A DNA stretch of 64,000 nucleotides, taken from NCBI GenBank assembly GCA_964558395.1, contig CAZLDS010000004.1:20897-84896 (forward strand), given 5' to 3'. Positions 11,766 to 59,823 of the stretch are shown piece after piece; within the stretch, counting starts at the first letter, position 1, and every line of letters starts with the position of its first letter. Both the position numbers and the translations under genes were made by a program. The notes under the pieces were generated by a model, which saw only the letters and a program-made list of their open reading frames with translations, made no database searches and was not told where the DNA came from. This stretch comes from an uncultured bacterium (GTDB taxonomy: Bacteria; Methylomirabilota; Methylomirabilia; Methylomirabilales; CSP1-5).

Positions 11766-12725
11766 TCATCGAGCCGAAAAGCCCTCGGTGTCGTGACCCC
11801 TCGGCGTGGTCTGCACGGCCAAGACCGGACACGGGGCCTTCCGGATCACCGCTGCCGCCACGCTCCCGAGGATGACGTGGGGGAGGCCGGTGCGGCCACG
11901 GGTGCCCATGACGATCAGGCCAGCCTGTTCGGTTTCGGCCTGGGCCACGATGACTTCGGTTGGTGCCCCGACCACGACCTTCCAATGAGCGCGCAGTCCT
12001 GTTGCCTCCGCTTCTCGCTGTCTGCGCCCGAGTTCTTGTTCGACGGTCGGAAAGGAACGCTGCACCTCGGCTTCTGGCAAGGGCCCCGGATGCTCAGCGA
12101 GGGCCTCGGCTATTTCGGGGGGCGAAACCGCGTGCAGGAGAACCATGTCCGCCTCAAAGACACCCGCCAAGGTCAGCGCATACTGCCAGGCGCCCTCGGA
12201 GACGGCAGATAGGTCAGTCGCCCAGAGAATACGTTTGACGCCGGTGAGTGGCCGCGCCCCCTGCCCAAGGCGGAGCGTGAGGACGGGAACGGACACCGTG
12301 CGGAGCACCGCCTGGGCGACGCTGCCGAGCAAGAGATGCGCGAGACCTCTGCGCCCGTGGGTCGCCATGAGGATGAGATCCGCCTGACTCTCTGCGGCCG
12401 CCCATCCGATCCCCGGCGTCGGGTCGCTGACTTTCACATGAAACCGGACGGTCAGCGACGGCCGGAGTTGTGCCGGCACGACGGTTTCAAACCACGTGCG
12501 GAGCCGGTCACGCACGTCATCCAAGACGTCCACCTGGGGCTTCCCCCGCTCCCGCCCGACCTCTTGGAGAAGCTCTAGCCCGGAAAAGGCATGGAACAGC
12601 ACGAGATCTGAGTGTGCCCGTGTCGCCAGCCGTGCAGCGAGCTCACACGCGGCCCCGGCGGGCGGGGAAAAGTCGGTCGGGACGAGAATGCGGGCGATAC
12701 GTGCTACGACACTCACATCCGTCAC
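11766..12725 (-). CDS. Tandem-domain universal stress protein (2 x UspA)
   Basis: 319 aa. Two USP modules each end in GxxGRxGLxHxLLGSV ([21 protein letters not shown] and [21 protein letters not shown]). Confidence 0.9.
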
Positions 12726-13682
12726 CTACGCGGCGATGCCATCGGTGCCTCGTTCCTTCGTTTGGCCATCTCGGCTGACCTTCACTGCCAGGACCGGACA
12801 GGGTGCCTTCCGGATTACCCCCGCCGCCACGCTTCCGAGGATGGCGTGCGAGAGGCCGGTTCGGCCATGCGTACCCATGATGATCAGATCGGCTTGCTCT
12901 GCCCGGGCATACCCCACGATGGCCTCGGTTGGAATTCCCACCACGACCTTCCGGCGGGCGCGCAATCGCAGGGCTTCGAGCGCCTGTTGTCGCCGCTCAA
13001 GTTCCTCCTCTATCCGTATGAAGTAATGCTCTACCCAGTGGACCGGCCGGGAGAGTGGATGATCAGCGACGGCGGCCACCTCGGTGGGTTGCACGGCGTG
13101 GAGCAGTACCACTTCGGCGCCAAAGACGCCCGCGAGAGTGACGGCGTACTGCCAGGCCCCCTCGGACACGGGGGACAGATCGGTCGCCCACAGAATCCGC
13201 CGGATCGCCGCGAGGTGGTGCTCCCCTTGCCCGAGCCGGAGCGCCAGGACGGGAACCGAAACAGTCCGGAGCACCGCCTCGGTGACGCTGCCCAGTAAGA
13301 GATGCGAGAGGCCGGTCCGCCCCCGGGTCGCCATCAGAACGAGGTCTGCCCCAGTGCGTCTCACCGCCCGCGCGATCCCCGGGATCGGTTCGCCAACCTT
13401 CACCCGGAAATCGACCGGCAGGAACCCGTGCAGTTCTGAGGGCACCCCAGCTTCGAACCACGTCTGCACCTGGGTCCGGGCGGCATTCAGGAACTCTACC
13501 TGCGTTCTCTTCCCCGGGCGCCGAACCTCGTGGAACAGCTCTGCCCTCGGGATGGCGTGGAAAATGACAAGGCCAGCCTTGAGGAAATTTGCCAACCGCG
13601 CGGCGAGGTGGCACGCAATCTGCGACGCGAGGGAATAGTCGGTGGGCAGAAGAATTCGGGTGATCTTCACTGTGGGATCCAT
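12726..13682 (-). CDS. Tandem-domain universal stress protein (2 x UspA), paralog of the 11766-12725 gene
   Basis: Same architecture as its neighbour. Long blocks are near-identical, for example [46 protein letters not shown]. Its stop codon abuts the next start codon. Confidence 0.9.
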   Translation of the reverse strand: MDPTVKITRILLPTDYSLASQIACHLAARLANFLKAGLVIFHAIPRAELFHEVRRPGKRTQVEFLNAARTQVQTWFEAGVPSELHGFLPVDFRVKVGEPIPGIARAVRRTGADLVLMATRGRTGLSHLLLGSVTEAVLRTVSVPVLALRLGQGEHHLAAIRRILWATDLSPVSEGAWQYAVTLAGVFGAEVVLLHAVQPTEVAAVADHPLSRPVHWVEHYFIRIEEELERRQQALEALRLRARRKVVVGIPTEAIVGYARAEQADLIIMGTHGRTGLSHAILGSVAAGVIRKAPCPVLAVKVSRDGQTKERGTDGIAA

Positions 13683-13933
13683 ACCTGCTCCCCTGCGCGG
13701 CCCCGAAAAGCACAACGCCCTCCCAGGCGATATTCCGCCCGGGAAGGCGCCAGAACGTTTGGTGCACCCACAATGATACCAGACGTGGGCGATGACTGTA
13801 TCTCTACCCCGGCTTCATGGACTCCTCCCTCAGCTTACGAAACAAATATCGCGCCCTGTCAAATGGGTGTCAAGCCTCGGGGATTTCATCGTGGGTGAAG
13901 GCATATCGACATCAGGTGGAGGGCTCGTCGCAA

Positions 13934-21617: not shown

Positions 21618-22166
21618 CTATTCACCCAGGAGGTGTCCAATCATCGCCTCCATCTCGGCGTATCCTCCCTCACCGATACGCGTGTAACGGATGATCCCCT
21701 GCTTGTCAATGAGGTGAAGGGTAGGCCAGTATCGGGTGCGGTATCGGTTCCATGTGGCAAAGTCGTTGTCGAGGGCGACTGGATACGAGATCCCCAGCTC
21801 TTTGCAGGCTGATGTCACCTTGTCCAGCGGCTTTTCCCAACCAAACTCGGGTGAGTGGATGCCAATGATCGCGAGACCCTGAGGCCCGAATCGTTTATGC
21901 CAATCCACCAACTGGGGGATTGTGTTCCGACAGTTTATTCACCCGTAGGTCCAAAATTCCAGAAGGATAACCTTTCCGCGAAGATCGGCGAGGCGCACCG
22001 GTGCAGAATTGATCCACACCTGGTTGGTGAGCTCTGGGGCCCGCTGGCCGATCAGTGATGCTTCTACCCACGCCAGCGAGAGCCATACGATCCCCAGCGT
22101 GGTGACGATAATCCAAGGTTTGAAACGTCTTTGGGTTCTCATCGCTTGCGCTGACAACGGAATCAT
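21618..22166 (-). CDS. TlpA / DipZ-C-terminal-type thioredoxin-fold thiol:disulfide oxidoreductase; probable selenoprotein (UxxC) with in-frame TGA at 21941-21939
   Basis: ORFs 21939-22166 and 21618-21911 are in the same frame and are separated only by a TGA. Read-through gives LRGKVILLEFWTYG-U-INCRNTIPQLVDWHKRFGPQGLAIIGIHSPEF...YWPTLHLIDKQGIIRY, with the TGA exactly at the first Cys of the redox CxxC. There is an N-terminal signal anchor, and ccdA lies immediately upstream. Confidence 0.8.
21901..21922 (-). promoter_or_regulatory. Candidate bacterial SECIS hairpin for the redoxin UGA
   Basis: The mRNA CAAUCCCC-CAGUU-GG(U)GGAUUG starts 20 nt after the UGA. It has an 8-bp stem with a bulged U and GU in the apical loop, which lies about 28-32 nt from the UGA. 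Confidence 0.45.
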
Positions 22167-22240: not shown

Positions 22241-22987
22241 TTAGAGACGCTGAAAGAGCCATTCAGGCGTGAAGTGCAGCGCGAAAGTCGAGAGGAGGGT
22301 GAAATAGTCCGTCAAAAGCAATACGCCCACTAGGATGAGCAAGAGACCGCTCCCGCGACTCACCCAGGGGAGCAGGCGCGTGAACCGACGGAAGAAGTAG
22401 AGGAACCGCTCAAAAAGCAGCGCGCTGAGAAAGAAAGGAATGGCGAGCCCCGCGGAGTAGGCCACGAGCAGGAGGATGCCCTGCCCGACGGTCTGGGAGG
22501 TGCTTGCCATGACCAGGATCGAACCGAGAATGGGGCCCACACACGGAATCCATCCGGCGGCAAAGGTCACGCCTACCAGGAAGGCCCCCAGGTAGCCACC
22601 GGGTTGGACCTTCAAGTCCACGTGTCTTTCTCGCATCAGGAACGGGAGGCTGAGCCATCCGGCGATGTGCAGCCCAAACAGAATAACCAACAGCCCACCG
22701 ATTTTGCGAATGACGAGCTGATAATCAAACAGGACCTGGCCGAGTGCGGTTGCTGAGGCCCCGAAGGCGATGAATATGCTCGAGAATCCAACAATAAAGG
22801 CCACGGAATGCGAGAGGAGAAGGCGTCGATTCTTGGCATGAGGAGCTGAGCCTTGCACCTCCTCCACGGAGAGACCACCTACGAAAGCGAGGTAGGAAGG
22901 GATGAGGGGAAAGACACAGGGCGAAAGGAACGAGAGCAGACCTGCCCCCATGGCTACCAAGACCGATACTTGCGCCGCCGCGCTCAT
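22241..22987 (-). CDS. ccdA: Cytochrome c biogenesis / thiol-reductant transfer membrane protein CcdA (DsbD core family)
   Basis: 248 aa with 6 or more TM segments. The two conserved membrane Cys motifs are present: LSPCVFPLIPSYL and WIPCVGPILGSIL. Confidence 0.9.
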   Translation of the reverse strand: MSAAAQVSVLVAMGAGLLSFLSPCVFPLIPSYLAFVGGLSVEEVQGSAPHAKNRRLLLSHSVAFIVGFSSIFIAFGASATALGQVLFDYQLVIRKIGGLLVILFGLHIAGWLSLPFLMRERHVDLKVQPGGYLGAFLVGVTFAAGWIPCVGPILGSILVMASTSQTVGQGILLLVAYSAGLAIPFFLSALLFERFLYFFRRFTRLLPWVSRGSGLLLILVGVLLLTDYFTLLSTFALHFTPEWLFQRL

Positions 22988-23186: not shown

Positions 23187-24002
23187 TCAAGGGTGGCTGC
23201 CTTCGGAAAAGACGAGGGCACACTCGACGAGCTCGTCCCAGCCTACATCCGACACCAGCGCGTAAGTCATGTCCCCGCTATCCCAAAGGAGGATGTGTTT
23301 TCCCTGATACGCAGCGCTATAAAAGACCATACCCGATAGCTCCACCTTCTCGAGGCCCTCCAGCGAACCGCCATATCGCGGAAAGGCGAAGAGTGAGATG
23401 ATGTTTCGTCCCTTTTCGTACAGGATATACGCCGCCCGATGACCGGCCAGACGCGTGACCCGGCTACCGAGCAGCCGGATCCCCGCAGCGCTATAGTCCG
23501 GCACCCGGACGCGATGCCCGGTGCGCCCTTGAACCCAGACGGCCACCTGCTGGAGGTTCTCACTGGAAAGCTCTGTGGGGTTTTCGAGGGGGGCGAACTT
23601 CATGTGTTCCATGACCAGTTGAGCGACGAGCGGGTGAAGTGCGGGCGGCAAGCGGGGCGTCGCAATCAGATATCCGAGGAGTCCCCCGAGGAAGATGAGA
23701 AGCACCGAGGCGGCCAACGCCAACCACGACGCACGCCACCCCCAGCTCGACGTCCGAGCGGACCGCTTCCCTCCCTCGTCCAGCTCCCCAATCCTCGCTC
23801 GGAGCTTCTCCGCGACATGGGGCGGAACTGGTTCCTGAGAAACCGCCCTTCTGAGTTCTTCCCGGAATGCGTGTTCCGCCTCGACAGCCCGCTGGCAGGA
23901 AGGGCACTCCTGAAGATGCCCTTCGACCTCTAACGTCATCGAGGCGTTAAGTTCCCCGTCGCAATACGCTTGAAGAAACCGTGCAACCTCAGGACACCTC
24001 AT
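23187..24002 (-). CDS. Membrane-spanning anti-sigma factor with an N-terminal zinc-binding (zf-HC2 / ZAS-type HxxxCxxC) domain
   Basis: MRCPEVARFLQAYCDGELNASMTLEVEGHLQECPSCQ, then one TM segment (WLALAASVLLIFLGGLLGYLI) and an extracytoplasmic domain of about 160 aa. ATG 24002 is preceded by GGAGGA. It sits directly after the ECF sigma gene. Confidence 0.85.
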   Translation of the reverse strand: MRCPEVARFLQAYCDGELNASMTLEVEGHLQECPSCQRAVEAEHAFREELRRAVSQEPVPPHVAEKLRARIGELDEGGKRSARTSSWGWRASWLALAASVLLIFLGGLLGYLIATPRLPPALHPLVAQLVMEHMKFAPLENPTELSSENLQQVAVWVQGRTGHRVRVPDYSAAGIRLLGSRVTRLAGHRAAYILYEKGRNIISLFAFPRYGGSLEGLEKVELSGMVFYSAAYQGKHILLWDSGDMTYALVSDVGWDELVECALVFSEGSHP

Positions 24003-24018
24003 CCGTCCTCCTTCTAAC

Positions 24019-24567
24019 CTATTCGCTCTTCGTGTAGTCCTGAAGAGCGTCTCGCAACGCCTGCCGGCCACGGTACAGCCGCGACATCACGGTCCCGATG
24101 GGACACTGGGAGATCTCTGCGATCTCCCGATAGCTACAGCCCTCGAGATCCGCCAGGACCACCGTCAGGCGCAGCTTCGGCGGAAGGGCCGCGATGGCCC
24201 GCTGAATCTCCTCGCCCGTCAACCGGCGAATGAGATCGACCTCGGGAGCCCGGGACATCACGCTCCCGCGCTCCGCCTCCCGGTAGACTCGCTCCTCGTC
24301 AAAGTCGACTCCCTGCGCAGAGGCCTGCCGGATCCGATTAACAAAGAGATTGTGCAAGATGGCAAAGAGCCAAGCCCGACAATCGGTCCCCTGTTGGAAC
24401 TGATGGAAGAAGCGGTATGCCCTGAGGAACGTCTCTTGAAAAAGATCCTCCGCCTCGCTCTTATTTCGCGTGAGCCGCAGGGCCGCGTTGTATATTCGCT
24501 GCATATGGACCAGGGCAATCTCCTCAAATTCTTGCCGCCCTGGGTCTCCGCGATCGGGCCCCATCAC
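24019..24567 (-). CDS. ECF-type RNA polymerase sigma-70 family factor
   Basis: 182 aa. Region 2 (AEDLFQETFLRAYRFF ... WLFAILHNLFVNRIR) and region 4 (CSYREIAEISQCPIGTVMSRLYRGRQAL) are present. The start is GTG 24567 or ATG 24564. Confidence 0.9.
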   Translation of the reverse strand: MMGPDRGDPGRQEFEEIALVHMQRIYNAALRLTRNKSEAEDLFQETFLRAYRFFHQFQQGTDCRAWLFAILHNLFVNRIRQASAQGVDFDEERVYREAERGSVMSRAPEVDLIRRLTGEEIQRAIAALPPKLRLTVVLADLEGCSYREIAEISQCPIGTVMSRLYRGRQALRDALQDYTKSE

Positions 24568-24611: not shown

Positions 24612-24638
24612 AACAGCCCCACCACCGAGAATATTCCC
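24612..24638 (-). promoter_or_regulatory. ECF (SigR/SigH-type) promoter candidate upstream of the ECF sigma gene
   Basis: The minus strand reads GGGAATA-N16-TGTT, i.e. GGAAT-N18-GTT. It ends 45 nt upstream of the sigma gene start. Confidence 0.5.
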
Positions 24639-24729: not shown

Positions 24730-24756
24730 GGGAATAACATGCACCATCACCCTGTT
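24730..24756 (+). promoter_or_regulatory. ECF (SigR/SigH-type) promoter candidate upstream of the DUF3179 selenoprotein gene
   Basis: The plus strand reads GGGAATA-N16-TGTT, with identical hexamers and spacing to the divergent copy at 24612-24638. It ends about 60 nt upstream of ATG 24818. Confidence 0.5.
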
Positions 24757-24817
24757 GAACGCATATAAGAAGGACACTTGAGGGAGGGCAACGGAGAAAA
24801 GGGAGTTGGTTCTGGGT

Positions 24818-25894
24818 ATGAAGCAATATGTCTCGGCTGAACTGTCAGTCCTCGCACTTTTGTGGGTAATTCCTACTCTCGCTGGCCCCCTTCCTTATCA
24901 AGGCAGTCTGATCATCGACGGAGCCCCGGTGATCACCGTCCTCGGCAAAGATGCCATCCCGGCCACCAACCGGCCGGAGTTTATGTCGGTCCAGGAACCC
25001 AGTCCAGACTTCCGGGACGACGAACCGGTTCTGGGGGTACGGCGAGGCACGGTGGCCCGGGCCTATTCCCTCTGGCAACTAAACCACCACGAAATTGTCA
25101 ACGACCAGGTGGGAGATCTCCCACTCGCCATTACGTGGTGACCCCTCTGTTTCACGGGCATCGTGTATGTCCGACCAACATATCAGGGAAAACCACTCAC
25201 CTTCGGCGTCAGTGGGATGCTCTGGAAAGACGCCCTCGTCATGTATGATCGGGAGACCGAAACCCTGTGGAGCCACTTTAACGCCAGGGCCATCCACGGG
25301 ACGCTCCGGGGGACGGAGCTCAAACCTTACCCTGCGATTCACACAACATGGGGGGAGTGGAAGCAACTCTATCCCAATAGCAAGGTGCTGTCGAAAAGAG
25401 CGACGCTCGGGGGTATCAGAGGTCCCCATAACGTGTACGCCGGGTATATGGCCGACCCGAATCAGCTCGGGATCTTCGGGACGCGCAATCCGGACCACAC
25501 CCTGCCTGGAAAGGAGCACGTCTTTGGCCTCAAGTTCAAGGACGAGAGGGTGGCCTACCCGCTTCAATATCTGCGTCGCTCTCCGCTGGTCCATGACACG
25601 GTGGCTGGCGAACCGGTCCTCGTGGTGTTCATCGCCCGGGAAGCTACGGCAGTCGCCCTATCTCGTCATGTCGGGGGAAAGACCCTGGACTTCGCGCGTC
25701 TCCGTCAAACCGCAAGAAAATGGCTCATTGAGGATACGTTAACTGGGTCCAGATGGAGGGCACTGAATGGTGAAGCGATCGCTGGCCCACTGAAAGGGTC
25801 CCGCGTCACACCACTGCCAGGACACCAGGTCTTTTGGTTCGCGTGGAAGGGGTTCTACCCGCACACGCGTCTGTGGACCGGAAATAAACCTTGA
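24818..25894 (+). CDS. DUF3179 family exported protein; probable selenoprotein (U-P-L-C) with in-frame TGA at 25139-25141
   Basis: ORFs 24806-25141 and 25163-25894 share a frame. Read-through gives DEPVLGVRRGTVARAYSLWQLNHHEIVNDQVGDLPLAITW-U-PLCFTGIVYVRPTYQGKPLTFGVSGMLWKDALVMYDRETETLWSH, which matches DUF3179 blocks on both sides of the TGA. The TGA sits at the first Cys of the family CPLC motif. An N-terminal signal peptide is present. Confidence 0.8.
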
Positions 25895-26053: not shown

Positions 26054-26857
26054 ATGCATAGTCCAATCTCAGCCTTTGCAAAAGGGGCCTCCGCGTATCA
26101 GGAGTACCTTGAAAGCCCGCATGGGCGGCTCCGATTGGAGATTATCTGGCATCAATTGTCGGCCTTCATGGCGAAGGCATGGGGACCTAACCGAGAGCCC
26201 GTTCGGGTTCTCGACATCGGCTGTGGGACCGGAGAAGTCGCTCTGCGCCTGGCTGCTCAGGGCCATGCGGTCACCCTCCTCGACTCGGTGGCGGCCATGC
26301 TGGATCTCGCCAAAGACAAGCTACGGGAGAAAGCACCGCCGCCCATTGCGCCATGCTTTCTCCACGGATCCCTCGAAGAGGCGTCCGATCTGCTCGAAAA
26401 GCAAACCTTCGATCTTCTCCTGTGCCACACGGTTGTGGAATACCTCCCAAATCCGGAGAGCGCCCTGGGTCCGTTTCGCTCCCTTCTCAACCGAGGGGGA
26501 TTCCTCTCCCTGGTCACCCTGAATGATTGGCAAGCGCCAATCCGCCTGGCCGTCCGGGATCGTAAATTCGACCAGGCAAGGGACGCCCTCGCGGCCGAAG
26601 AACCCACAGATTCCCTCTTCGGCATTCCTCGCAAGCGGATGGTCACCCACGAATTGTGCACGCAACTCGAGGCGGTCGGGATCGAGGTGCTCAGTCATGA
26701 GGGCATCGTGGTCTTCGCAGATTATCTCCCATCCACGGTGCTCAAGGACACTTCTCACTTCGAATCCCTGCTCCGCCTCGAAGTAGAAGCCGCCACTCGT
26801 TCTCCCTTCAAAGAGGTAGCTCGGTACTTCCATCTCTGGGGCAGGCGGACCGGATAA
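26054..26857 (+). CDS. Class I SAM-dependent methyltransferase, SmtA/CmoM-like
   Basis: SAM motif I VLDIGCGTGEVALRLA. The overall layout resembles E. coli SmtA/CmoM (LLCHTVVEYLPNPESAL ... RGGFLSLVTLN ... ARYFHLWGRR). Confidence 0.8.
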   Translation: MHSPISAFAKGASAYQEYLESPHGRLRLEIIWHQLSAFMAKAWGPNREPVRVLDIGCGTGEVALRLAAQGHAVTLLDSVAAMLDLAKDKLREKAPPPIAPCFLHGSLEEASDLLEKQTFDLLLCHTVVEYLPNPESALGPFRSLLNRGGFLSLVTLNDWQAPIRLAVRDRKFDQARDALAAEEPTDSLFGIPRKRMVTHELCTQLEAVGIEVLSHEGIVVFADYLPSTVLKDTSHFESLLRLEVEAATRSPFKEVARYFHLWGRRTG

Positions 26858-26872
26858 TCAGTTGGACTGCGG

Positions 26873-27550
26873 ATGGGAATCACGGTTATTATTCCGGCAC
26901 TCAATGAAGAAGAGGCAATCGGCACGGTCGTGACCGAAGTCCCCCGCGACCTCGCGAGTGAGATTATCGTTGTAGATAACGGCAGCACGGATCGGACGGC
27001 GGACATGGCCAGCGCGGCCGGCGCGAAGGTGATTCGCGAGCCGATGCGAGGGTACGGGGCGGCCTGTCTCGCAGGAGCGATGGCGGCTCACAATGATATC
27101 CTCGTCTTCTTGGACGGTGATCGGAGCGACGATCCGCAAGAAATGCCGGTTGTTCTTGCTCCCCTTCTGGACGGACAAGCTGATCTGGTCATCGGATCGC
27201 GTACGGCGGGCTTCACCGAGAAAGGAGCGCTGACGTCGCAACAGCGGTTCGGGAACCAACTCGTCACCTGCGTCGTTCGACTCCTGTACGGCATTACCCT
27301 GACTGACATCGGTCCCTTTCGAGCCATCCGGGCGTCAGTCCTGCGAGATCTCGGCATGGAGCACAAGACCTATGGATGGCCTGTGGAGATGGTCGTTAAG
27401 GCAGCCAAGAAAGGCTACCGCGTTATGAATGTTCCGGTCAGCTGTCGGAAGAGAATCGGCGTCTCAAAGGTGGCGGGGACGATGAAAGGCAGCATCCTGG
27501 CGGGCTATCATCTACTGTCGACCACTGTGCGATATGCCTGGAGGAGATAG
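26873..27550 (+). CDS. Family 2 glycosyltransferase (dolichyl/polyprenyl-phosphate sugar synthase-like)
   Basis: ITVIIPALNEEEAI ... VVDNGSTDRT ... VFLDGDRSDDP (DxD motif). Confidence 0.85.
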   Translation: MGITVIIPALNEEEAIGTVVTEVPRDLASEIIVVDNGSTDRTADMASAAGAKVIREPMRGYGAACLAGAMAAHNDILVFLDGDRSDDPQEMPVVLAPLLDGQADLVIGSRTAGFTEKGALTSQQRFGNQLVTCVVRLLYGITLTDIGPFRAIRASVLRDLGMEHKTYGWPVEMVVKAAKKGYRVMNVPVSCRKRIGVSKVAGTMKGSILAGYHLLSTTVRYAWRR

Positions 27551-27554
27551 CGCG

Positions 27555-28547
27555 ATGGCATACTCCGTTGGCATCGGTCTCACGAACGAATGCAATTTAC
27601 GATGTCCCCATTGCTACCGCCCCGATATGGTGATCGAGCGTCTCACGTTCCGGGAGGTGCAGGAGGTCTGCGAGAGCATTCCGATCCGATCGATGAACCT
27701 CGGCGTGGGAGAGAATGGACTCCACCCGGAATATCAAGCCATCCTCGATTATGTCTGGACGCAGGGCATCAAGACGACCATCACCTCGAACGGACTCAGT
27801 ATTCAGGCACTCTCGGACAAGCACGTTAAGCGCTTTCATAGCGTGGAGTTTTCCCTGGACTTCCCCACCGAGCGGGAGCACGACGCCTTTCGGGGGACAG
27901 GGAACTGGCGCGGCGTCATGGAGGCGATCGCGCGGTGTGCCGACATCGGCCTCTCGGTCACGGTGACTTCGGTCATGATGAGCATCAATTACGAGAAACT
28001 GGGCGATCTCGCCAAGGTGGCCGCCTCGGTCGGGGCCAACCTCCGAGTGAACATCTATCAACCCGCAAAGACGGATCAGTTTACGCTGAGGTACGAGCAA
28101 TTCTGGGAAGGATTCAGGCGCCTCTTGGGCGACACACGCCTGGTCGCCACCACCGAGCCTGTCTTAGCCGGAGTCCTGGGACTGGACGGGTTCGACGGTC
28201 CGGCGTGTGGCCGTTCCACGGTTCGGGTGGCCCCCGACGGTCGAATCCTTCCCTGCACGTACTGGCCGAAGAGTCGTCTGACCCTTGCCGACCTGAAAGC
28301 CCTCGGCGAAGACATCGTGCAGGCACCGGAGTTCCTCGAGGCCCGGCAGGTTCCCCCAGCGTGCGCGGGGTGTCCGTGTCGGGGTGGCTGCGCGGGCAGG
28401 CGCGCCGTGCTCGGTAACCTCCATGGATCTGATCCCTACTGCCCCTTTGTGAGGGGTGATCGACTCATGATCGAATGGGAGCAGGCAACAGGGCAGGATC
28501 TCCCCAAGGTGGGAAGCGCCTGCACCACGGTCGTGTCAGCACTGTAG
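27555..28547 (+). CDS. Radical SAM enzyme with a C-terminal SPASM/twitch-type Cys cluster
   Basis: CNLRCPHCY is the CxxxCxxC motif. C-terminal ACGRSTVRVAPDGRILPC ... CAGCPCRGGCAGRR. ATG 27555 is preceded by GGAGGAGA. Confidence 0.85.
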   Translation: MAYSVGIGLTNECNLRCPHCYRPDMVIERLTFREVQEVCESIPIRSMNLGVGENGLHPEYQAILDYVWTQGIKTTITSNGLSIQALSDKHVKRFHSVEFSLDFPTEREHDAFRGTGNWRGVMEAIARCADIGLSVTVTSVMMSINYEKLGDLAKVAASVGANLRVNIYQPAKTDQFTLRYEQFWEGFRRLLGDTRLVATTEPVLAGVLGLDGFDGPACGRSTVRVAPDGRILPCTYWPKSRLTLADLKALGEDIVQAPEFLEARQVPPACAGCPCRGGCAGRRAVLGNLHGSDPYCPFVRGDRLMIEWEQATGQDLPKVGSACTTVVSAL

Positions 28548-28577
28548 AGGCGTTTCGCGAGCGATGAGGACTGAGCG

Positions 28578-29597
28578 ATGAGCGATGAGATGAACCACTC
28601 GAAGCGTCTTCCGGTCGCGGCCGAATTACCCCGCACCCTCTATCTGGAGACGACCAATCGCTGTAACTCGAAATGCCAGACGTGCGTCCGGACTTTTCTC
28701 ACCCTTGAGCCGCCCAAGGACCTCACCCTGGCCGAGCTGAAGAGCATCGTGGACCAATTCCCAGTCTTGGAACGGGTCGTTCTCCACGGGGTTGGCGAGC
28801 CGCTGTTGAATCGAGAGCTTTTCGAAATGATCGCATACGTGAAGGCCCGGGGCGCAACGGTCCTGTTCAACTCCGATGCCATCAGCCTCACCCCAAAGCG
28901 CGCCCAACAGCTCATCGACAGCCGCCTGGATGAATTGCGCGTCTCCATGGACGGGGCGACCCGCGAAACGTATGACAAAATTCGCGGCGTTGACCAGTTC
29001 GACCGGGTCGTGGGAAATGTCAGTCATCTGCTCGACCTGCAGCGGAAGCTCAAGAGAGAGACCCCCCGCGTCTCCCTCTGGTTTACCGCCATGAAGGCCA
29101 ATCTCCATGAGCTCCCGGCATTCGTGCGACTGGCCGCCAGGATTGGAGTCCCGGAGGTCTACGTCCAGCGCCTCGTATATAACGGCCACGGGATCGCTGT
29201 GGCCGACCAGTCGCTTCACCGGGCGATGCACGAGCGGGAGCAAAAGTTGATCGCAGAGGCAGATGAGTTAGCGCGGACTTTCCAAATCGCCTTCAAGGCC
29301 TCAGGCTTGACCACGCCCATGGAAAGTCTCCAAGGAACGGAACTCGGTAAACGGCCCTGGTCCGGCTGCCACCGTCCCTGGACGCTGAGCTACGTAACGG
29401 CAAACGGCAACGTGCTCCCCTGCTGCCTCGCCCCTTGGACGGCGAAAAACTACCGGGGGGCCCTCTTGGGCAATGCCTTCACGGACGATTTTTCGCGCAT
29501 CTGGAACGGGGAACAATACCGGCAGTTCAGAGAGACGTTCGAGAGCGACGTCCCTCCAGATCCCTGCCACGGGTGCGGACTGCTCTGGAGTTATTAA
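28578..29597 (+). CDS. Radical SAM / SPASM domain protein
   Basis: TNRCNSKCQTCV is the CxxxCxxC motif. C-terminal CHRPWTLSYVTANGNVLPCC ... IWNGEQYRQFR ... DPCHGC. Confidence 0.85.
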   Translation: MSDEMNHSKRLPVAAELPRTLYLETTNRCNSKCQTCVRTFLTLEPPKDLTLAELKSIVDQFPVLERVVLHGVGEPLLNRELFEMIAYVKARGATVLFNSDAISLTPKRAQQLIDSRLDELRVSMDGATRETYDKIRGVDQFDRVVGNVSHLLDLQRKLKRETPRVSLWFTAMKANLHELPAFVRLAARIGVPEVYVQRLVYNGHGIAVADQSLHRAMHEREQKLIAEADELARTFQIAFKASGLTTPMESLQGTELGKRPWSGCHRPWTLSYVTANGNVLPCCLAPWTAKNYRGALLGNAFTDDFSRIWNGEQYRQFRETFESDVPPDPCHGCGLLWSY

Positions 29598-52941: not shown

Positions 52942-55900
52942 TCACCTTGACGCAGGTTCCAAGCTGGATGTACCCGCATAATGGCTGGGCGCAAAGCGCA
53001 GGTACAGGCTAGGGACGACGAAAAGGTTGAGCAGTGTCGAGGTGACCAGGCCGCCCAGAACCACGAGGGCCAACGGGTGTTCGATCTCGTTGCCGGGAAT
53101 CGAGCCCGCAATCACCAGGGGCACGAGGGCCAGCCCGGTTGTGGTCGCGGTCATCAAGATGGGCGCCAGCCGTTCCCGTGCCCCGCGCAGGACGAGCGCG
53201 GGGCCAAAGGTCTCCCCCTCATACGCTTCCAGATGCTGAAAGTGATTGATCATCAAAATACCGTTGCGTGCCGCAATTCCCAACACGGTGAGGAATCCCA
53301 CGAGCGAACCGAGCGAGATGACGCCGTCACCCAACCAAGCCGCCAGCACACCGCCCACTAGGGCCGAGGGGAGAAGCACAAAGGAAATGACCGCCAGGCG
53401 GGCACTATTAAAGGAGGTGTGGAGTAAGAGGAAAATCGCGAGCAGACCGACAATTGCGAAGGCGAGCATTTTGCGCTGAACCGCCAGCCGCTCCGTATAT
53501 TCCCCCAGCAGCACCGGATAGTACTCATGGGGGAACTCGATCTTGGCGAGGGCGGCCTGCACATCGGCATAGACCGCGCCAAGAGGGCGTCCACGCACGT
53601 TGGCATCAACGTCCATGCGGCGACTGAGGTTCTCACGTTGGACGACATTCGGCGTTGGCGCGATGCGCACATCGGCCACTTCCTCCAAACGCGCGTGACC
53701 GCCGCCAGGCGTGTCAATTAAAAGGTTCTTAATATCGCTCAGACTATGGCGCGCCGAAGGTATGCTCCACACATTCACATCGTACGTCCGGTTGGCGATG
53801 TGAATATCGCCGGCTTCCTCGAGGGCCACCAAGGTAGTCGTTGCTCGGCGCACGTCTCCTGGTTTAACGCCATACTTTTGGGCCTTCGCTAGATCGACCT
53901 TCACTTCGATCTGGGGGATCTTTTCCTGAAAGGACATGTGCAGATCGATGATGCCGTCAATCTTCGCCAGGGCATCTCTCACTTCCGTCGCCTTTTGCTT
54001 GAGGACATCCAGATCACGCCCATAGATCCGCACCACAATCGCATCGGAGCTTCCGGTGAGCACCTCGCGGATCCTCTCTTTGAGATAGGTCTGCACGTCG
54101 CGATAGACCCCGGGGTAGCCGTCAACGGCCGCCTGGATTTTGCGGAGCGTCTCGTCATAGTCCACCGCAGGATCGACGCTGATCCAATTTTCGCCGAAAT
54201 ACACACCGACCACTTCATCCATGATCAGGGCTTGCCCGATGTGGGCCCCGAAATTGCGGACACCGGGAATGGACCGCAATTCCTTACTGGCCTGAACGGT
54301 GATGCGGGCCTCCTCTGGCCAGGAGGTGCCGGGCTTGGTGAGCCAGTGCATCAGGAAGTCCCTCTCCTTGAACGAAGGCAGCAGCGAATGCCCGAGTAGC
54401 GGCCACACGACGATGCCCGCCAGCATGATGACGCCGACGGTCAGATAGGCCGGGAGGGGCGTCTTGACAATCCGCGAAAGTACCGTGCCGTAGCCGCGTT
54501 GCAGCCAGCGCGTGAGCGGGGACTCGCGGTGCTCGAGCGGGACATTCCGCAACAGAATAAAGCTCATTGCCGGTGTGACAGTCAGTGCGACCACCATGGA
54601 CGCTGCAATCGCTATCGCATAAGAAAACGCCAGGGGCCTGAAAAATGCACCAGACAACCCCTCCATCACGAAGACCGGCAACAGTGCCGCGATTTCGATC
54701 AGCGATGCGACGACGATGGCGTGGCGCACCTCATACGAGGCCTCGAGAACGACTCTCCCAAACGGTACCTGGCTGCCCTCCTTACGATACTCGCGCAGGC
54801 GTCGCACGATGTTTTCGACATCGACGATCGCATCATCCACCACGGCGCCCAGGGCAATCACCAGCCCGGCCAACACCATGGTATTGATGGTTGTCCCACG
54901 TAAGTAGAGGACCATCATTGCCGACATCAGCGATAAGGGGATCGCCGTACAACTGATCAACGCGGTACGCCACTCGTACAGAAAGACAAAAAGAACCAGC
55001 ACGACGAGAACCGCGGCGATGATAAGCGCCTTGTTGAGATTGTGGACGGCCACCTCGATGAAGGTGGCCGGCCGGAAGATGGTCGTGTCAATGTCCACAT
55101 CGGGAAGACCGGGCCGCAAGGCATCGAGCGCCTTTTCGACTTCCCGAGACACTTGCAGCGTGTTGCCCCAGGGGAATTTTTCCACGATGAGCAGCAGGCC
55201 GGGACCCTCGTTGACGATACCTTCGCCAACCATCGGTTGATGATCAATCACCACCTCGGCCACGTCTTTCAGCAGCAGCTGTTTGCCATTCCTGACGGCA
55301 AGGGGCACATTGGCCAGGGGATCCGTCGTGACCTGGTCATACTTCTGGACCACGGGGGGGACGTGCCGGATTTGCAGCCTTTGGTTCGGGGTCTCCACCC
55401 ACCCGCCGCTGCCGATATGGTGTCCCTCTGAAAATTTGAACAAACCCACGTCCAAAGAGTCGGCCGTGGCCCCCATGACCTCTTCCAGCGTCACCTTGTG
55501 CTTGCGCAACAACTCCGGTACGACGTTGACATTCAGCATTTGCAGCCGCTCGCCCCACATGGCGACATTGGCCACACCGGGGACGCGCAACAAGCGCTGC
55601 CGGATGGTCCAATAGGTGATCATCGACAAGTCCATTACGGATCGGGTTTTCGACGAAATCCCGATCTTCATCATCCGGCTGGTTGACGACAGGGGCGGCA
55701 GCATCACGGGCGGGCTGGCCCAGCTTGGCAACGTCGGGACGACTGTTATAATGCGCTCGTTCAGCATCTGCCGCGCCAGCAGCAGATCCGTGCCGGGCTT
55801 GAAATACATCTTGATTGCCGACAAACCAGGAACCGACTTGGAGCGCATGGCGGTCATCCCCGGCACGCCGGCGAGCACCTGCTCCAGCGGAGCCGTGACC

Positions 55901-56091
55901 AGGGACTCCACTTCTTCCGAAGAAAGTCCGAGGCTGATGGTCTGAATCTCCACCATCGGCGGCGCGAACTCGGGAAAGACGTCCACCGGCATTTTTTGAA
56001 CTTGCTCGATGCCGAAGTACATCAGTCCCACCGCGCAGGCAAGAACAAGGTACCTGAACTTCAGGCTCTTTTCGACGATCCACCGAAACAT
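52942..56091 (-). CDS. RND efflux permease, CusA/CzcA (COG3696)-like
   Basis: 1049 aa with 12 TM segments and two large periplasmic loops. The N-terminus [17 protein letters not shown] and the TM4 motif [19 protein letters not shown] are typical of the family. Confidence 0.9.
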
Positions 56092-56167
56092 AGCAGAGTC
56101 TCCGTCTATAGTCGGTTAGGTAGCATGTGCCCTATAAGGCGTAAAACGTGTTTCCGCTTCCCGTCTT

Positions 56168-56596
56168 CTAATGTCCAACCTTGAACTCGGCGCCGTACAG
56201 TTCCGCCACTGCCACTGCCGCGACGACCGTACCAACCGGCGGGCCGTCGTTCAGGACCGCAATATCACCTTTAATGTAGTCAACATCGACTTTATGCCTG
56301 ACGAAGGCACGGGGTTGGGGGCTGGTGTATACCCAGGTTTGGCCTTCGGGGTCATAGATCAGCGAAGAGTAGGGAACTACCTTTTTCCCTCCCTCCTCAC
56401 GAACCTGATCGGTTTTCAGATCGAGCCGTTCGATCGCCCGCTCGGTCAGAGTCACACGGCTCATATTCGACCCCTCGATTTTCGTGATTTCGGCCGGATG
56501 CTCGACGTGCTGTGTGTCAGCTTGTCTTTGGCACGCTGCCAGTGGCAGGCCCGCAATGATCAGCACCGCAATCATCACTCGATGAGTGTCCTGCAT
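56168..56596 (-). CDS. Small lipoprotein resembling only the N- and C-terminal (membrane-proximal) segments of an RND adaptor
   Basis: Lipobox LPLAAC. RVTLTERAIERLDLKTDQV resembles the start of CzcB/CusB-type adaptors. VVPYSSLIYDPEGQTWVYTSPQPRAFVRHKVDVDYIKGDIAVLNDGPPVGTVVAAVAVAELYGAE resembles their C-terminal MP domain. No hairpin, lipoyl or barrel parts are present. Confidence 0.6.
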   Translation of the reverse strand: MQDTHRVMIAVLIIAGLPLAACQRQADTQHVEHPAEITKIEGSNMSRVTLTERAIERLDLKTDQVREEGGKKVVPYSSLIYDPEGQTWVYTSPQPRAFVRHKVDVDYIKGDIAVLNDGPPVGTVVAAVAVAELYGAEFKVGH

Positions 56597-56652
56597 CGCT
56601 CCCCTCCTATTGATCCTTAATACGGGTTGTCCCTTTCTGGTTCTTGGACTTG

Positions 56653-59600
56653 TTAAGCTCGCACCATACCCTCTCGCATTTCATCTTCGGTGACGACTCT
56701 GCCCGGAACGTCTTGAAGATCAAGCTCCGCTTCGCGGGCAGCTCCAAAGAGCACGTACAATGCCGGGACACCGGCCAGGGAATAAATCGTCGCCGTCACC
56801 AGGCTACCGAGAACGACGACGGCCGTCGGATGCACGATTTCGAGACCGGCGATGTTGCCGAAAAACCCCAGGGGTAGGAAAGCCAGTGCGGTGGTGACCG
56901 CCGTCATCAAGATCGGGGCAGATCGTTCCCGAGTCGCACGCTGAACGAGCTCGGCGCCAAACTTTTCACCCTCACGCTCGAGAGTACGGTAACGGCTAAT
57001 CAACGTGATACTGTTCCGCACGACAATTCCCCAGACCGCGATGAATCCCGCGATCGAACCGAGTGAGAGCAGGCCGCCGCTGGTCACGAAGACAGCCAGC
57101 ACACCGCCCACCAGAGCCATGGGCAGGGTTAGGAAGACGGCCGTCGCCAGGCGCCAGCTCCGGAAGAACACCTGCAAGAGCAGGAAAGCCCCAATGGCCG
57201 CGGCAATCGCATAAGCGAGCACGCGCTGCTCGGCAGCATCGCGTTCCACGTACTCTCCGAGCAGCTCCGCGCGGTACTCAAGCGGAAACGCGACTTTCTC
57301 GAGACGATCTTCGACCTCGTCCCCTACGGCGCCGAGATCGCGTCCACGCACGTTGGCTGCCACATCCACGTAACGCGCCACGGCATCTCGATGGATCTCG
57401 GTGACAGAGGGCACGATGCGCACATGCGCCACGTCTTTCAAGCGCACATGGCTACCCGAGGGGGTGTCGATTAGCAGATTTTGAACATTGGTAACACTGT
57501 GGCGGGTCTCGGGCGTGCCCCATACCACAACGTCGAACACTTTCTGTTCTTCGAAAAGCGCGCCGACGACAATGCCCGACACCAATGAGGTCGCGGCGCG
57601 GCGGACATCGCCAGGCTTGAGGTTATAGCGTTTGGCTCTTTCGACATCGACCTCGATTTCCAAAGTGGGCATTTCTGGAGGATATTGTACTTTGGCATTA
57701 ACAATGCCGTCGGTCCCCGCCAGGAGCTTCTGAACCTCCTCTGCCTTATTGCGGATCATATTCATATTCTCACCGTACACGCGCACGACGAGCGATTTAC
57801 CGGTTCCCGTCAACTCCTCTCTGACCTTTTTTTGCAGATAGGTCAGCACCTCAGGAGACAGGCCAGGATAGCCGGCAACCACTTCCTTGACCCTGGCGAC
57901 GGTCGCTTCGTAGTCGGCTGAAGGATCGATGCTGACCCACAGCTCACTGGAATTGATATTCGTCCGCTTATCCGACATGATGGCGCGTCCCATAAGAGCG
58001 CTGACATTGCGGACGCCTGGAATCGACCGCAGCTCGCGGCTGGCGAGCGTGATGATGCGGCTCATGGCCGGATGGGAAGCGCTGGAGCTGCCTTCCATGC
58101 GAACCACCAGGTCCGTTTCTTTGAAAGCGGGCAGCAGAGACTCCTGGCGGAGGAATGGAACGAACGCGAAGCCGACAACGACGAGCGCACAGACAGCGAC
58201 AAATGCTGGGATTGGTGTGCGGGCAGCCCATCCCAAAAGACCGCTGTGGATGCCGCGCAGCATCCCCATCCCAGGAGAATCACCGGCCCGGAGCGAGGCA
58301 TTGCGCAAGAGGAACACACTCAACGCCGGCGTGACGGTCAGCGCAACCGCAAAGGAGGCGAGCAACGCCAGTATATAGGACGTGGCGACTGGCCGAGAAA
58401 ACGCGCCGGACAAACCTTCCAGGAAGAAGGCCGGCACCACCGCCAGTGCCATAATGGCCGTCGCGTAGACGAGGGGGCTGCGCATCTCGAGGGCGGCATG
58501 GAAAATGATAGTTGACGTCGACTTGGCGTGACCTTCTTCAGGCGCCTGGCGAAGACGTCGCACAATATTTTCTATGTCGACGATCGCGTCGTCGATGATG
58601 ACACCAAGGGCGATCATCAGCCCGGTGATGATCATCATATTGATCGTGACGCCCCTCATGTAAAGCACCGTTCCGGCGGCGATCACAGACATCAACACCG
58701 CCACGGTACTGATGAACCCCGTGCGCCAGTCGAAGAAAAAGGCAAGGAAAGCCACAATCATGAGCACCGCGCCGAAGAGCAGCGCCGAGGAGAGATTGGC
58801 AACCGCTAGCTCGAGGTAGGTCGCCGGCCGAAAGAGGGTGGAATCCATCTGCATATCGGAGACAGCAGGCCGCAAGTCTGTGAGCGCCTTTTCCACTTCT
58901 TTTGTTACATCCTTCGTATTGGCCCAGGGGAATTTCTCCACGACCAGCGTGAGCGCAGGCGCCTGGTTGACGATAGCATCCCCGATGAGCGGTTGATGGT
59001 CCTCCACCACTTCGGCCACGTCTCCCAAACGCTTCGCTGAGGCGTCGTCGATCGGCACCTTGGCCAGGTCCACCGCCGCTGTGATGGGCAGGACATGTCG
59101 GATGCTGAGCCTTTGATTGGGGGTATCGATCCATCCGCCGGTGCCGGGCGTCGAGGCTTCCAAAAAGCTCAATGGCGAGGCCCACAGCGAGTTGCCGGCG
59201 GTCTTGATGAGTTGCATCAGCGTCAGGCCTTCGGCCCGCAGCCGCTCGGGATCGACTTGCACCTGCAACTGCCGCTGGCGTTCGCCCCATATCGATACAT
59301 TGGCCACGCCGGGCAATCCCATTAAGCGGGGCATAATCGTCCAGCGCGCGAGCACCGACATTTCGATCAGGGACAACTTATCCGAGGTCAAGCCGATCTC
59401 CATGAACCTGCCGGCTGAGGAGACGGGATTGATCATGGTAAACTGGTTCGACACCTGTGGCAGGGCAAATATCTCGATGAGGCGCTCCTGGGCCACTTGC
59501 CGGGCCCGCATGATGTCGGTCCCTTTCTCAAAGATGAGCGTGATCGACGACAGGCCGGGAAGTGACACGGAACGGATTTCCTCAGCCCATGGGGTCCCGT

Positions 59601-59823
59601 TGAGCATGTCCGCCTCTAGGGGCGTGGTGATCATGGCCTCCACTTCCTGGGCGGAAAGTCCCAGGGCCTCAATTTGAATCTCCACATACGGGCGTGAGAA
59701 CTCGGGCAAGGCGTCCACCGGCATGGTGCGCAGCTGCGTGAAACCGAAAACCATCAGCAATGCCGCGAACGCAACAACGACGAGTCGAAGCTTCAAGCTC
59801 GACCCAACGATCCAACGCATCAT
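56653..59823 (-). CDS. RND efflux permease, CusA/CzcA (COG3696)-like, paralog of the 52942-56091 gene
   Basis: 1056 aa. MMRWIVGSSLKLRLVVV and LGVIIDDAIVDIENIVRRL. By eye, about half of positions are identical to the neighbouring pump. Confidence 0.9.
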   Translation of the reverse strand: MMRWIVGSSLKLRLVVVAFAALLMVFGFTQLRTMPVDALPEFSRPYVEIQIEALGLSAQEVEAMITTPLEADMLNGTPWAEEIRSVSLPGLSSITLIFEKGTDIMRARQVAQERLIEIFALPQVSNQFTMINPVSSAGRFMEIGLTSDKLSLIEMSVLARWTIMPRLMGLPGVANVSIWGERQRQLQVQVDPERLRAEGLTLMQLIKTAGNSLWASPLSFLEASTPGTGGWIDTPNQRLSIRHVLPITAAVDLAKVPIDDASAKRLGDVAEVVEDHQPLIGDAIVNQAPALTLVVEKFPWANTKDVTKEVEKALTDLRPAVSDMQMDSTLFRPATYLELAVANLSSALLFGAVLMIVAFLAFFFDWRTGFISTVAVLMSVIAAGTVLYMRGVTINMMIITGLMIALGVIIDDAIVDIENIVRRLRQAPEEGHAKSTSTIIFHAALEMRSPLVYATAIMALAVVPAFFLEGLSGAFSRPVATSYILALLASFAVALTVTPALSVFLLRNASLRAGDSPGMGMLRGIHSGLLGWAARTPIPAFVAVCALVVVGFAFVPFLRQESLLPAFKETDLVVRMEGSSSASHPAMSRIITLASRELRSIPGVRNVSALMGRAIMSDKRTNINSSELWVSIDPSADYEATVARVKEVVAGYPGLSPEVLTYLQKKVREELTGTGKSLVVRVYGENMNMIRNKAEEVQKLLAGTDGIVNAKVQYPPEMPTLEIEVDVERAKRYNLKPGDVRRAATSLVSGIVVGALFEEQKVFDVVVWGTPETRHSVTNVQNLLIDTPSGSHVRLKDVAHVRIVPSVTEIHRDAVARYVDVAANVRGRDLGAVGDEVEDRLEKVAFPLEYRAELLGEYVERDAAEQRVLAYAIAAAIGAFLLLQVFFRSWRLATAVFLTLPMALVGGVLAVFVTSGGLLSLGSIAGFIAVWGIVVRNSITLISRYRTLEREGEKFGAELVQRATRERSAPILMTAVTTALAFLPLGFFGNIAGLEIVHPTAVVVLGSLVTATIYSLAGVPALYVLFGAAREAELDLQDVPGRVVTEDEMREGMVRA

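Follow-up and report, generated by a model that had tools for sequence, protein, structure and literature searches.

Introduction

Proteins with the domain of unknown function DUF3179 (PF11376) are among the listed prokaryotic selenoproteins, in which an in-frame UGA codon is read as selenocysteine (Sec, U). Two reviews (PMC9312934, 2022; PMC13188914, 2026) include the entry "DUF3179 domain-containing protein, pfam11376, UxxC/T" among their tabulated selenoproteins, and both cite Zhang and Gladyshev 2007 (PMC1976440) for the family. That paper predates the name DUF3179 and does not use it; we infer that DUF3179 is one of the families designated "OS_HP" there. DsbA-like, DsbG-like and thiol:disulfide interchange selenoproteins are also tabulated in the 2007 paper. 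In the present work, a DUF3179 gene interrupted by an in-frame TGA was analysed in a 64-kb stretch of contig CAZLDS010000004.1 (here called the window), which belongs to a metagenome-assembled genome (MAG) of a Methylomirabilota bacterium.

An earlier note on this DNA had interpreted the TGA as a Sec codon, in a family that it did not know to be listed as selenoproteins and in an extracytoplasmic UxxC protein, which it considered unusual. The assignment of Sec to the UxxC motif is strongly supported by the data below. The novelty of the family is not, as DUF3179 is listed as UxxC/T in the tables of both reviews, and since exported thiol:disulfide selenoproteins were already present in the 2007 tables, an extracytoplasmic UxxC selenoprotein is not unusual either. 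The position proposed in the note for the selenocysteine insertion sequence (SECIS) also had to be given up. The gene is real but ordinary, one more member of a selenoprotein family already known: it shares with that family the same Pfam domain, the same Sec position, the UxxC motif and the existence of Cys homologues, and it differs in nothing essential, the window copy being unannotated and split in the Methylomirabilota MAG. The published descriptions of the DUF3179 family, in the available sections of the papers cited, do not include the covariation of its SECIS, the breadth of the Sec form (74 of 79 loci) or the genomic context described here.

The DUF3179 gene and its in-frame UGA

The open reading frames (ORFs) at 24806-25141 and 25163-25894 are in the same frame, and the TGA at 25139-25141 is their sole interruption. 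Translation from the ATG at 24818 would give a 107 aa product if this TGA terminates, and read-through gives 358 codons with the peptide ...LAITW-(TGA)-PLCFTGIVYVRP... at the junction. The coordinates, shared frame, single interruption, length and read-through peptide given in the earlier note were thus all reproduced. With the TGA translated as Cys, the product matches PF11376 from end to end (1-292 of 292, E = 2.1e-82, 277.3 bits against a gathering cut-off of 27), and the alignment runs across the TGA without a break. The TGA column is occupied by Cys in 19 of 19 full-length aligned homologues, within the motif (V/I)T(W/Y)-C-PLC, in agreement with the earlier placement of the TGA at the first Cys of CPLC. 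The family motifs (V/I)T(W/Y)-C-P-L-C, FGVSG and VMYDR are all present, with the first Cys being U here. In every close relative, gene callers report the gene as two separate PF11376 pieces.

It is very probable that 24818-25894 is one DUF3179 selenoprotein gene in which the UGA at codon 109 is recoded, with a hairpin at 25155-25173 as the SECIS. That the TGA encodes Sec at the first position of UxxC, in an apparently exported protein, is strongly supported by comparison of sequences. The correspondence between TGA and Cys, the presence of the TGA in several phyla, the purifying selection that acts on either half of the gene, and the covariation of the hairpin together with its absence from Cys forms are established comparatively. 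The hairpin, located inside the coding sequence, would act as a bacterial SECIS and recruit SelB with Sec-tRNA(Sec), such that the ribosome inserts Sec and does not terminate. The protein would then carry a U-P-L-C centre where Cys-type homologues have C-P-L-C.

Conservation of the UGA and selection on both halves of the gene

Homologues were searched in a collection of 5.8 billion proteins, and the DNA of 79 loci from GTDB species representatives, drawn from the best 80 of roughly 500 or more genome matches, was examined. The close protein homologues (53-100% identity, about 60 clusters, mostly Methylomirabilota/NC10) are all post-TGA fragments of 215-278 aa, and full-length DUF3179 proteins are found only at 47% identity or less to the window protein. 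An in-frame stop occupies the Sec column in 74 of the 79 loci, and the remaining five have TGT or TGC. The TGA codon itself was extracted in 71 of the 74, and the stop was seen as a stop symbol in translations or tblastn alignments for L018, L021 and L041. TGA forms occur in at least six phyla, including Methylomirabilota, Brocadiales and other Planctomycetota, Acidobacteriota, Marinimicrobia, Woeseiaceae and many Chloroflexota; the Sec form is evidently the predominant one in this sample. TGA is likewise found in L080-L083, four additional relatives in which the gene is called as two PF11376 pieces.

The ratio of nonsynonymous to synonymous substitution rates (dN/dS) was calculated by the Nei-Gojobori method with the seven closest orthologues, and was 0.10-0.18 for 62 codons upstream of the TGA and 0.06-0.14 for 62 codons downstream of it; the values against more distant Methylomirabilota orthologues did not exceed 0.35. 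The low values on either side of the TGA indicate that both halves are maintained as protein in one frame. Extra stops or frameshifts were found in none of the relatives except L073, an uncultured-bacterium MAG whose copy has an additional in-frame TAA (H-stop-IVND, L073:3160-3162) upstream of the TGA and may be either a true pseudogene or the result of misassembly.

A variant of the motif, W-U-P-L-A-H, in which Sec is retained and the second Cys is replaced by Ala followed by His, was observed in five loci (L012, L013, L021, L024 and L041) from Terriglobia, other Acidobacteriota and one MAG labelled Bacillota. The hairpin described below is present in these as well. The motif given for DUF3179 selenoproteins in the tables of the reviews (PMC9312934, PMC13188914) is UxxC/T, not UxxA.

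The probable recoding hairpin downstream of the UGA

Folding of the TGA and the following 57 nt of each locus disclosed a hairpin with a 7-bp stem and a 5-nt loop at positions +17 to +35 (U of UGA = 1), which recurs in nearly all Sec forms. Covariation was evaluated on an ungapped alignment (A2) of 72 sequences, 66 of them distinct. Pairing was found in 97.2% of the hairpin cells, compared with 82.8% in column shuffles, and changes on both sides occurred in four of the seven pairs. Compensatory cells numbered 57 against 18.5 expected, a value reached in 0 of 500 shuffles, and sliding the register of the hairpin lowered the pairing to 14-54%. The covariation is partly synonymous: Thr-ACU is accompanied by Arg-AGA in 26 sequences and Thr-ACG by Arg-CGN in 31, with 9 other combinations. 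The hairpin covers the codons for T-G-I-V-Y-V-R, and all seven pairs form in just 3.1% of the synonymous encodings of this peptide. Cys-form loci encode a nearly identical peptide, yet none of the five is fully paired; the question raised in the earlier note, whether Cys orthologues lose the structure, is thus answered in the affirmative. The mean energy of the 19-mer was -7.7 kcal/mol in Sec forms and -2.2 kcal/mol in Cys forms (Mann-Whitney p = 2e-4).

The loop begins 20 nt beyond the UGA; 55 of the 66 distinct sequences have CGUGU or CGGGU there, with G at the second position. The distance from the UGA, the stem length and the loop G appear to fit the rules for bacterial SECIS elements and the criteria of bSECISearch, a model that reportedly goes back to Zhang and Gladyshev in 2005. 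Like bacterial SECIS elements of the E. coli fdhF type, the window element is a stem-loop within the coding sequence, soon after the UGA, with G at loop position 2. It differs in being a short 7-bp minihelix that corresponds to no Rfam model and has a clade-specific lower stem. Indeed, an extended lower stem (positions 10-15 with 37-42) was considered as a family-wide element and rejected, as most of its pairs are formed in 41-64% of the sequences and it is confined to particular clades.

The earlier note had proposed a different hairpin, at 25165-25183. This is kept only in part (2-6 of 6 bp) and only in the closest clade and Methylomirabilota, being absent elsewhere. It overlaps the hairpin at 25155-25173, so that the two cannot coexist, and because it coincides with the conserved 3' arm of the latter and is only partly kept in the nearest clade, it is not the element.

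Within the 3' arm, the codon at 25169-25171 (+10 after the UGA) is V, A or S in Sec forms (GCC, UCC, GUC; column over L001-L079), and the codon of the same column in the five Cys forms is D or E (GAC, GAG). The RNA structure appears to dictate this difference between Sec and Cys forms at the residue after Tyr.

Table 1 Features of the window around the DUF3179 gene. Positions are those of the window.
Feature	Position	Strand	Remarks
Predicted DUF3179 selenoprotein gene	24818..25894	+	358 codons including Sec109; terminal stop TGA 25892-25894; single frame; full-length PF11376
In-frame UGA, first position of U-P-L-C, probably read as Sec	25139..25141	+	Cys in homologues; TGA kept in relatives
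Predicted N-terminal signal peptide or membrane anchor MKQYVSAELSVLALLWVIPTLAG	24818..24886	+	Putative, from sequence
Shine-Dalgarno-like AGGGAG	24800..24805	+	Putative; 12 nt upstream of ATG 24818
SECIS-like apical hairpin CGGGCAU-CGUGU-AUGUCCG	25155..25173	+	7 bp, 5-nt loop, -7.2 kcal/mol, begins 13 nt after UGA
Second predicted selenoprotein gene, TlpA/ResA-like redoxin, FWTYG-U-INC	21618..22166	-	In-frame TGA 21939-21941; about 3 kb from DUF3179
CcdA/DsbD-type transmembrane thiol-disulfide electron transporter	22241..22987	-	Pfam DsbD_TM, E = 1e-14
Zinc-associated (ZAS-type) anti-sigma factor, zf-HC2	23187..24071	-	H-x3-C-x2-C (HLQECPSC), one predicted membrane span
Extracytoplasmic function (ECF) sigma factor	24019..24567	-	Pfam Sigma70_r2 and Sigma70_r4_2; divergent from DUF3179
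ECF-type promoter motif GGAAT-N18-GTT toward ECF sigma operon	24612..24637	-	44 nt before sigma start; putative autoregulation
ECF-type promoter motif GGAAT-N18-GTT toward DUF3179	24731..24756	+	63 nt before DUF3179 ATG

A second TGA-interrupted gene and probable Sec decoding in the host

Scanning of the window for ORFs bridged by a TGA brought up a second gene, predicted to encode a TlpA/ResA-like redoxin (Table 1). Its read-through product matches AhpC-TSA, Redoxin and Thioredoxin_8 above the Pfam cut-off (E = 2e-16), but none of its matches to the NCBIfam models for ResA, TlpA and DsbE comes near the respective cut-off. It carries the motif FWTYG-U-INC. Among its homologues, the closest (77-91% identity) are without exception C-terminal fragments of 100-106 aa, and full-length homologues occur only at 63% identity or less. 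As synteny gave no TlpA-like orthologues in L080-L083, a separate homologue search was made. The TGA is kept in four relatives (L084-L087) from Methylomirabilales, NC10 and Binatia.

Downstream of the redoxin TGA, the five sequences share the block GAUCCCCCAGUUGGUGGAUUGGCAU without a single difference, which leaves no variation for a covariation signal; this block could be the SECIS of the redoxin gene. In L080 (1545-1637, - strand) the last 31 residues of a TlpA-like gene are left (71% identity), beside a Phenol_MetA_deg gene downstream of CcdA, and the TlpA-like gene is absent from L081-L083. The close relative L080 has apparently lost or replaced its Sec-redoxin gene.

TGA ends 17 of the 34 Pfam-supported ORFs in the window, the DUF3179 gene included. 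The genetic code is therefore standard, and the statement of the earlier note that TGA is an ordinary stop in the window holds. The use of Sec in Methylomirabilota has been published, including one MAG with 63 predicted selenoprotein genes. This literature and the second TGA/Cys gene give good indirect support to Sec decoding by the host.

The divergent ECF sigma operon and its promoter motifs

The genes for the TlpA-like redoxin, CcdA, the anti-sigma factor and the sigma factor are transcribed divergently from DUF3179. The sigma factor consists of Sigma70 regions 2 and 4 only and adjoins the zf-HC2 anti-sigma factor with its H-x3-C-x2-C motif; this pair is the divergent neighbour of DUF3179 in eight of eight close loci. 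ECF sigma genes are also found near DUF3179 in L007 and in the Planctomycetota locus L071. The 250-bp intergenic region holds the only two matches to GGAAT-N18-GTT in the window, one per strand, and the paired GGAAT/GTT layout is kept, with diverged spacers, in L001, L002, L010 and L080-L083 (eight loci with the window). What is non-random about the pair is its placement and conservation only.

The SigH/SigR-RshA/RsrA modules of Actinobacteria are the nearest described counterpart. By sequence, they share with the window the ECF sigma gene beside a zf-HC2 anti-sigma factor with H-x3-C-x2-C, and GGAAT-N18-GTT before both the sigma operon and a putative target; the targets are genes of thiol redox. 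They differ in the anti-sigma factor, which in the window is 294 aa long and is predicted to cross the membrane once, with some 155 aa forming an outer domain, RsrA and RshA being soluble proteins, and in the host, which is here a member of Methylomirabilota. GGAAT-N18-19-GTT is the consensus of SigH/SigR-type, ZAS-controlled ECF sigma factors of thiol-oxidative stress regulons (PMC10012870).

The arrangement also resembles CcdA-ResA/TlpA pathways, in that a CcdA-type transporter lies beside a membrane-anchored thioredoxin-fold protein with W-x-x-(C/U)-x-x-C, and Sec-containing thiol:disulfide oxidoreductases are known families. It differs from these pathways in that the window TlpA-like protein falls below the NCBIfam cut-offs for ResA, TlpA and DsbE alike.

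Clustering of the neighbours over the 79 loci gave no universal partner gene of DUF3179, and the recurrent neighbours are mostly due to synteny inside one Dehalococcoidia clade. The functional tie of DUF3179 to CcdA and the TlpA-like protein is weak beyond the closest relatives.

Weighing of the explanations

Several results count against the proposed selenoprotein gene, its SECIS or its context. No SECIS was matched by Rfam, either in the whole window at the gathering threshold or in 25050-25350 at E of 10 or less; because the bacterial SECIS models in Rfam are family- or clade-specific, this is weak negative evidence. The 72 nt downstream of the UGA (25139-25210) fold no better than shuffled sequences (z = +0.28), and support for the hairpin is therefore comparative, not thermodynamic. 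The contrast with Cys forms is drawn from five DNA sequences only. selA, selB and selD are absent from a Pfam survey of 44 ORFs in the 64-kb window, and tRNA-Sec, or indeed any tRNA, was not found within it. The hydrophobic N-terminus suggests export or membrane anchoring, full-length homologues having comparably hydrophobic N-termini in the alignment, and the export is itself deduced from such features of the sequence. As to the context, GGAAT-N18-GTT is a short motif, its two matches in the window comparing with 1.95 expected by chance, and a CcdA or TlpA-like gene neighbours DUF3179 in only about 9 of the 79 loci, L080-L083 being without the TlpA-like gene.

Some of these results would suit a pseudogene, that is, a nonsense mutation in a Cys-type DUF3179 gene leaving a 107-aa fragment or no product: gene callers and the NCBI annotation show two fragments, the Sec machinery was not seen within the window, and one relative (L073) has an extra in-frame TAA. 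However, the TGA is shared by 74 of 79 species-level genomes in at least six phyla, dN/dS is well below 1 on both sides with no other stop or frameshift outside L073, and the RNA hairpin covaries specifically in the TGA forms, such that this explanation is highly improbable and effectively refuted by the comparative data. Two separate genes, one for a 107-aa N-terminal protein and one for a 243-aa protein starting at GTG 25163, can be drawn in so far as both ORFs exist mechanically, and the same holds for a reassigned code with TGA as a sense codon. Yet the downstream start is not conserved, the called fragments beginning variously and measuring 215-278 aa, the Pfam domain is continuous over the junction, and the 21 nt from the TGA to GTG 25163 encode the conserved PLCFTGI. 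A reassigned code is opposed by the 17 of 34 genes that TGA terminates and by the aligned residue, which is Cys and not Trp or Gly, and we consider either possibility scarcely credible. Taken together, TGA conservation, dN/dS and the standard code leave no room for a pseudogene, a split gene, a reassigned code or an error of sequencing.

Read-through of the UGA that does not depend on a SECIS, by a near-cognate tRNA (Trp or Cys) or a context effect, with a hairpin that just slows termination, is compatible with the lack of an Rfam match for the hairpin and of SelB and tRNA-Sec genes in the window, Sec at this UGA being deduced from sequence. But the UGA replaces a Cys of CxxC, the canonical position of Sec, in a family already catalogued as selenoproteins; the hairpin has the distance, stem length and loop G of a SECIS; and the phyla concerned are reported to use Sec, the window itself containing a second UxxC gene. 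Such read-through is accordingly regarded as improbable.

Structure and possible role of the DUF3179 protein

The literature searched contained no functional study of DUF3179, NCBIfam has no model for the protein, and a sequence-profile search of the PDB with DUF3179 gave nothing meaningful. A structure was modelled with AlphaFold2 on the Cys homologue P0046 (45% identical), with a predicted local distance difference test score (pLDDT) of 89.9 and a predicted template modelling score (pTM) of 0.86. The model is all-beta with few helices, and residues 1-31 are disordered. Besides U-P-L-C, the conserved residues of the family include E95, N98, D99, D144 and R145. A Foldseek search of this model against the PDB gave no match at E of 1e-3 or less; the best matches were Rieske ferredoxins (E = 0.026-0.5), partial and over about 90 residues. 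A Rieske-type [2Fe-2S] ferredoxin was therefore considered and rejected, as C/U-P-L-C is present and the C-x-H ... C-x-x-H ligand motifs are absent; DUF3179 is thus not a Rieske protein.

The site of action of the recoded DUF3179 protein may be extracytoplasmic, with a role in selenol/thiol redox or in the handling of metals. Because GGAAT-N18-GTT motifs face both transcription units, it is proposed to be part of an envelope stress module with the operon for the ECF sigma factor, ZAS anti-sigma factor, CcdA and TlpA-like (Sec) protein; the adjacent sigma factor, itself autoregulated, would control its expression, and it would work in the envelope with CcdA and the Sec-redoxin.

More tentatively, and rather unlikely on present evidence, the two selenoproteins might form an extracytoplasmic selenol redox relay under control of the ECF sigma factor. 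The membrane ZAS anti-sigma factor would sense envelope thiol or metal stress, the sigma factor would fire both divergent GGAAT-N18-GTT promoters, and electrons from CcdA would pass to the TlpA-like (U-x-x-C) protein, by which the U-P-L-C centre of DUF3179 would be kept reduced. DUF3179 as a substrate of the TlpA-like protein is put forward as a hypothesis only. If true, the relay would be the first physiological role for an uncharacterised and very widespread family, and Sec-type DUF3179 (74 of the 79 closest species genomes) would be among the broadest envelope selenoproteins in Chloroflexota, Acidobacteriota and Methylomirabilota.

For annotation, DUF3179 orthologues and the neighbouring redoxin are routinely mis-called as two fragments, and recognition of both Sec genes corrects the proteome of a selenoprotein-rich phylum. 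The scientific gain is modest, since catalogues of selenoproteins already contain DUF3179. What is gained by the comparison is a well-supported SECIS minihelix specific to the family, which limits the choice of codons and even that of the residue after Tyr, together with the breadth of the Sec form, a second selenoprotein nearby and a pair of ECF promoter motifs. The ECF sigma factor, ZAS anti-sigma factor, CcdA and Sec-redoxin also offer a regulatory and functional setting, open to experiment, in which to place this domain of unknown function.

Other genes in the window

Directly 3' of DUF3179, at 26054-29597 (+ strand), are genes for an S-adenosylmethionine (SAM) methyltransferase, a GT2 glycosyltransferase and two radical-SAM proteins, one of them with SPASM. 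This block is syntenic in L002, L010 and L080, and radical-SAM genes are also found near DUF3179 in L007 and L011 (Brocadiales). Two pairs of tandem paralogues were noted elsewhere in the window, both on the - strand: two double-Usp universal stress proteins at 11766-13715, and two AcrB-type RND transporters of about 1050 aa at 52942-59823.

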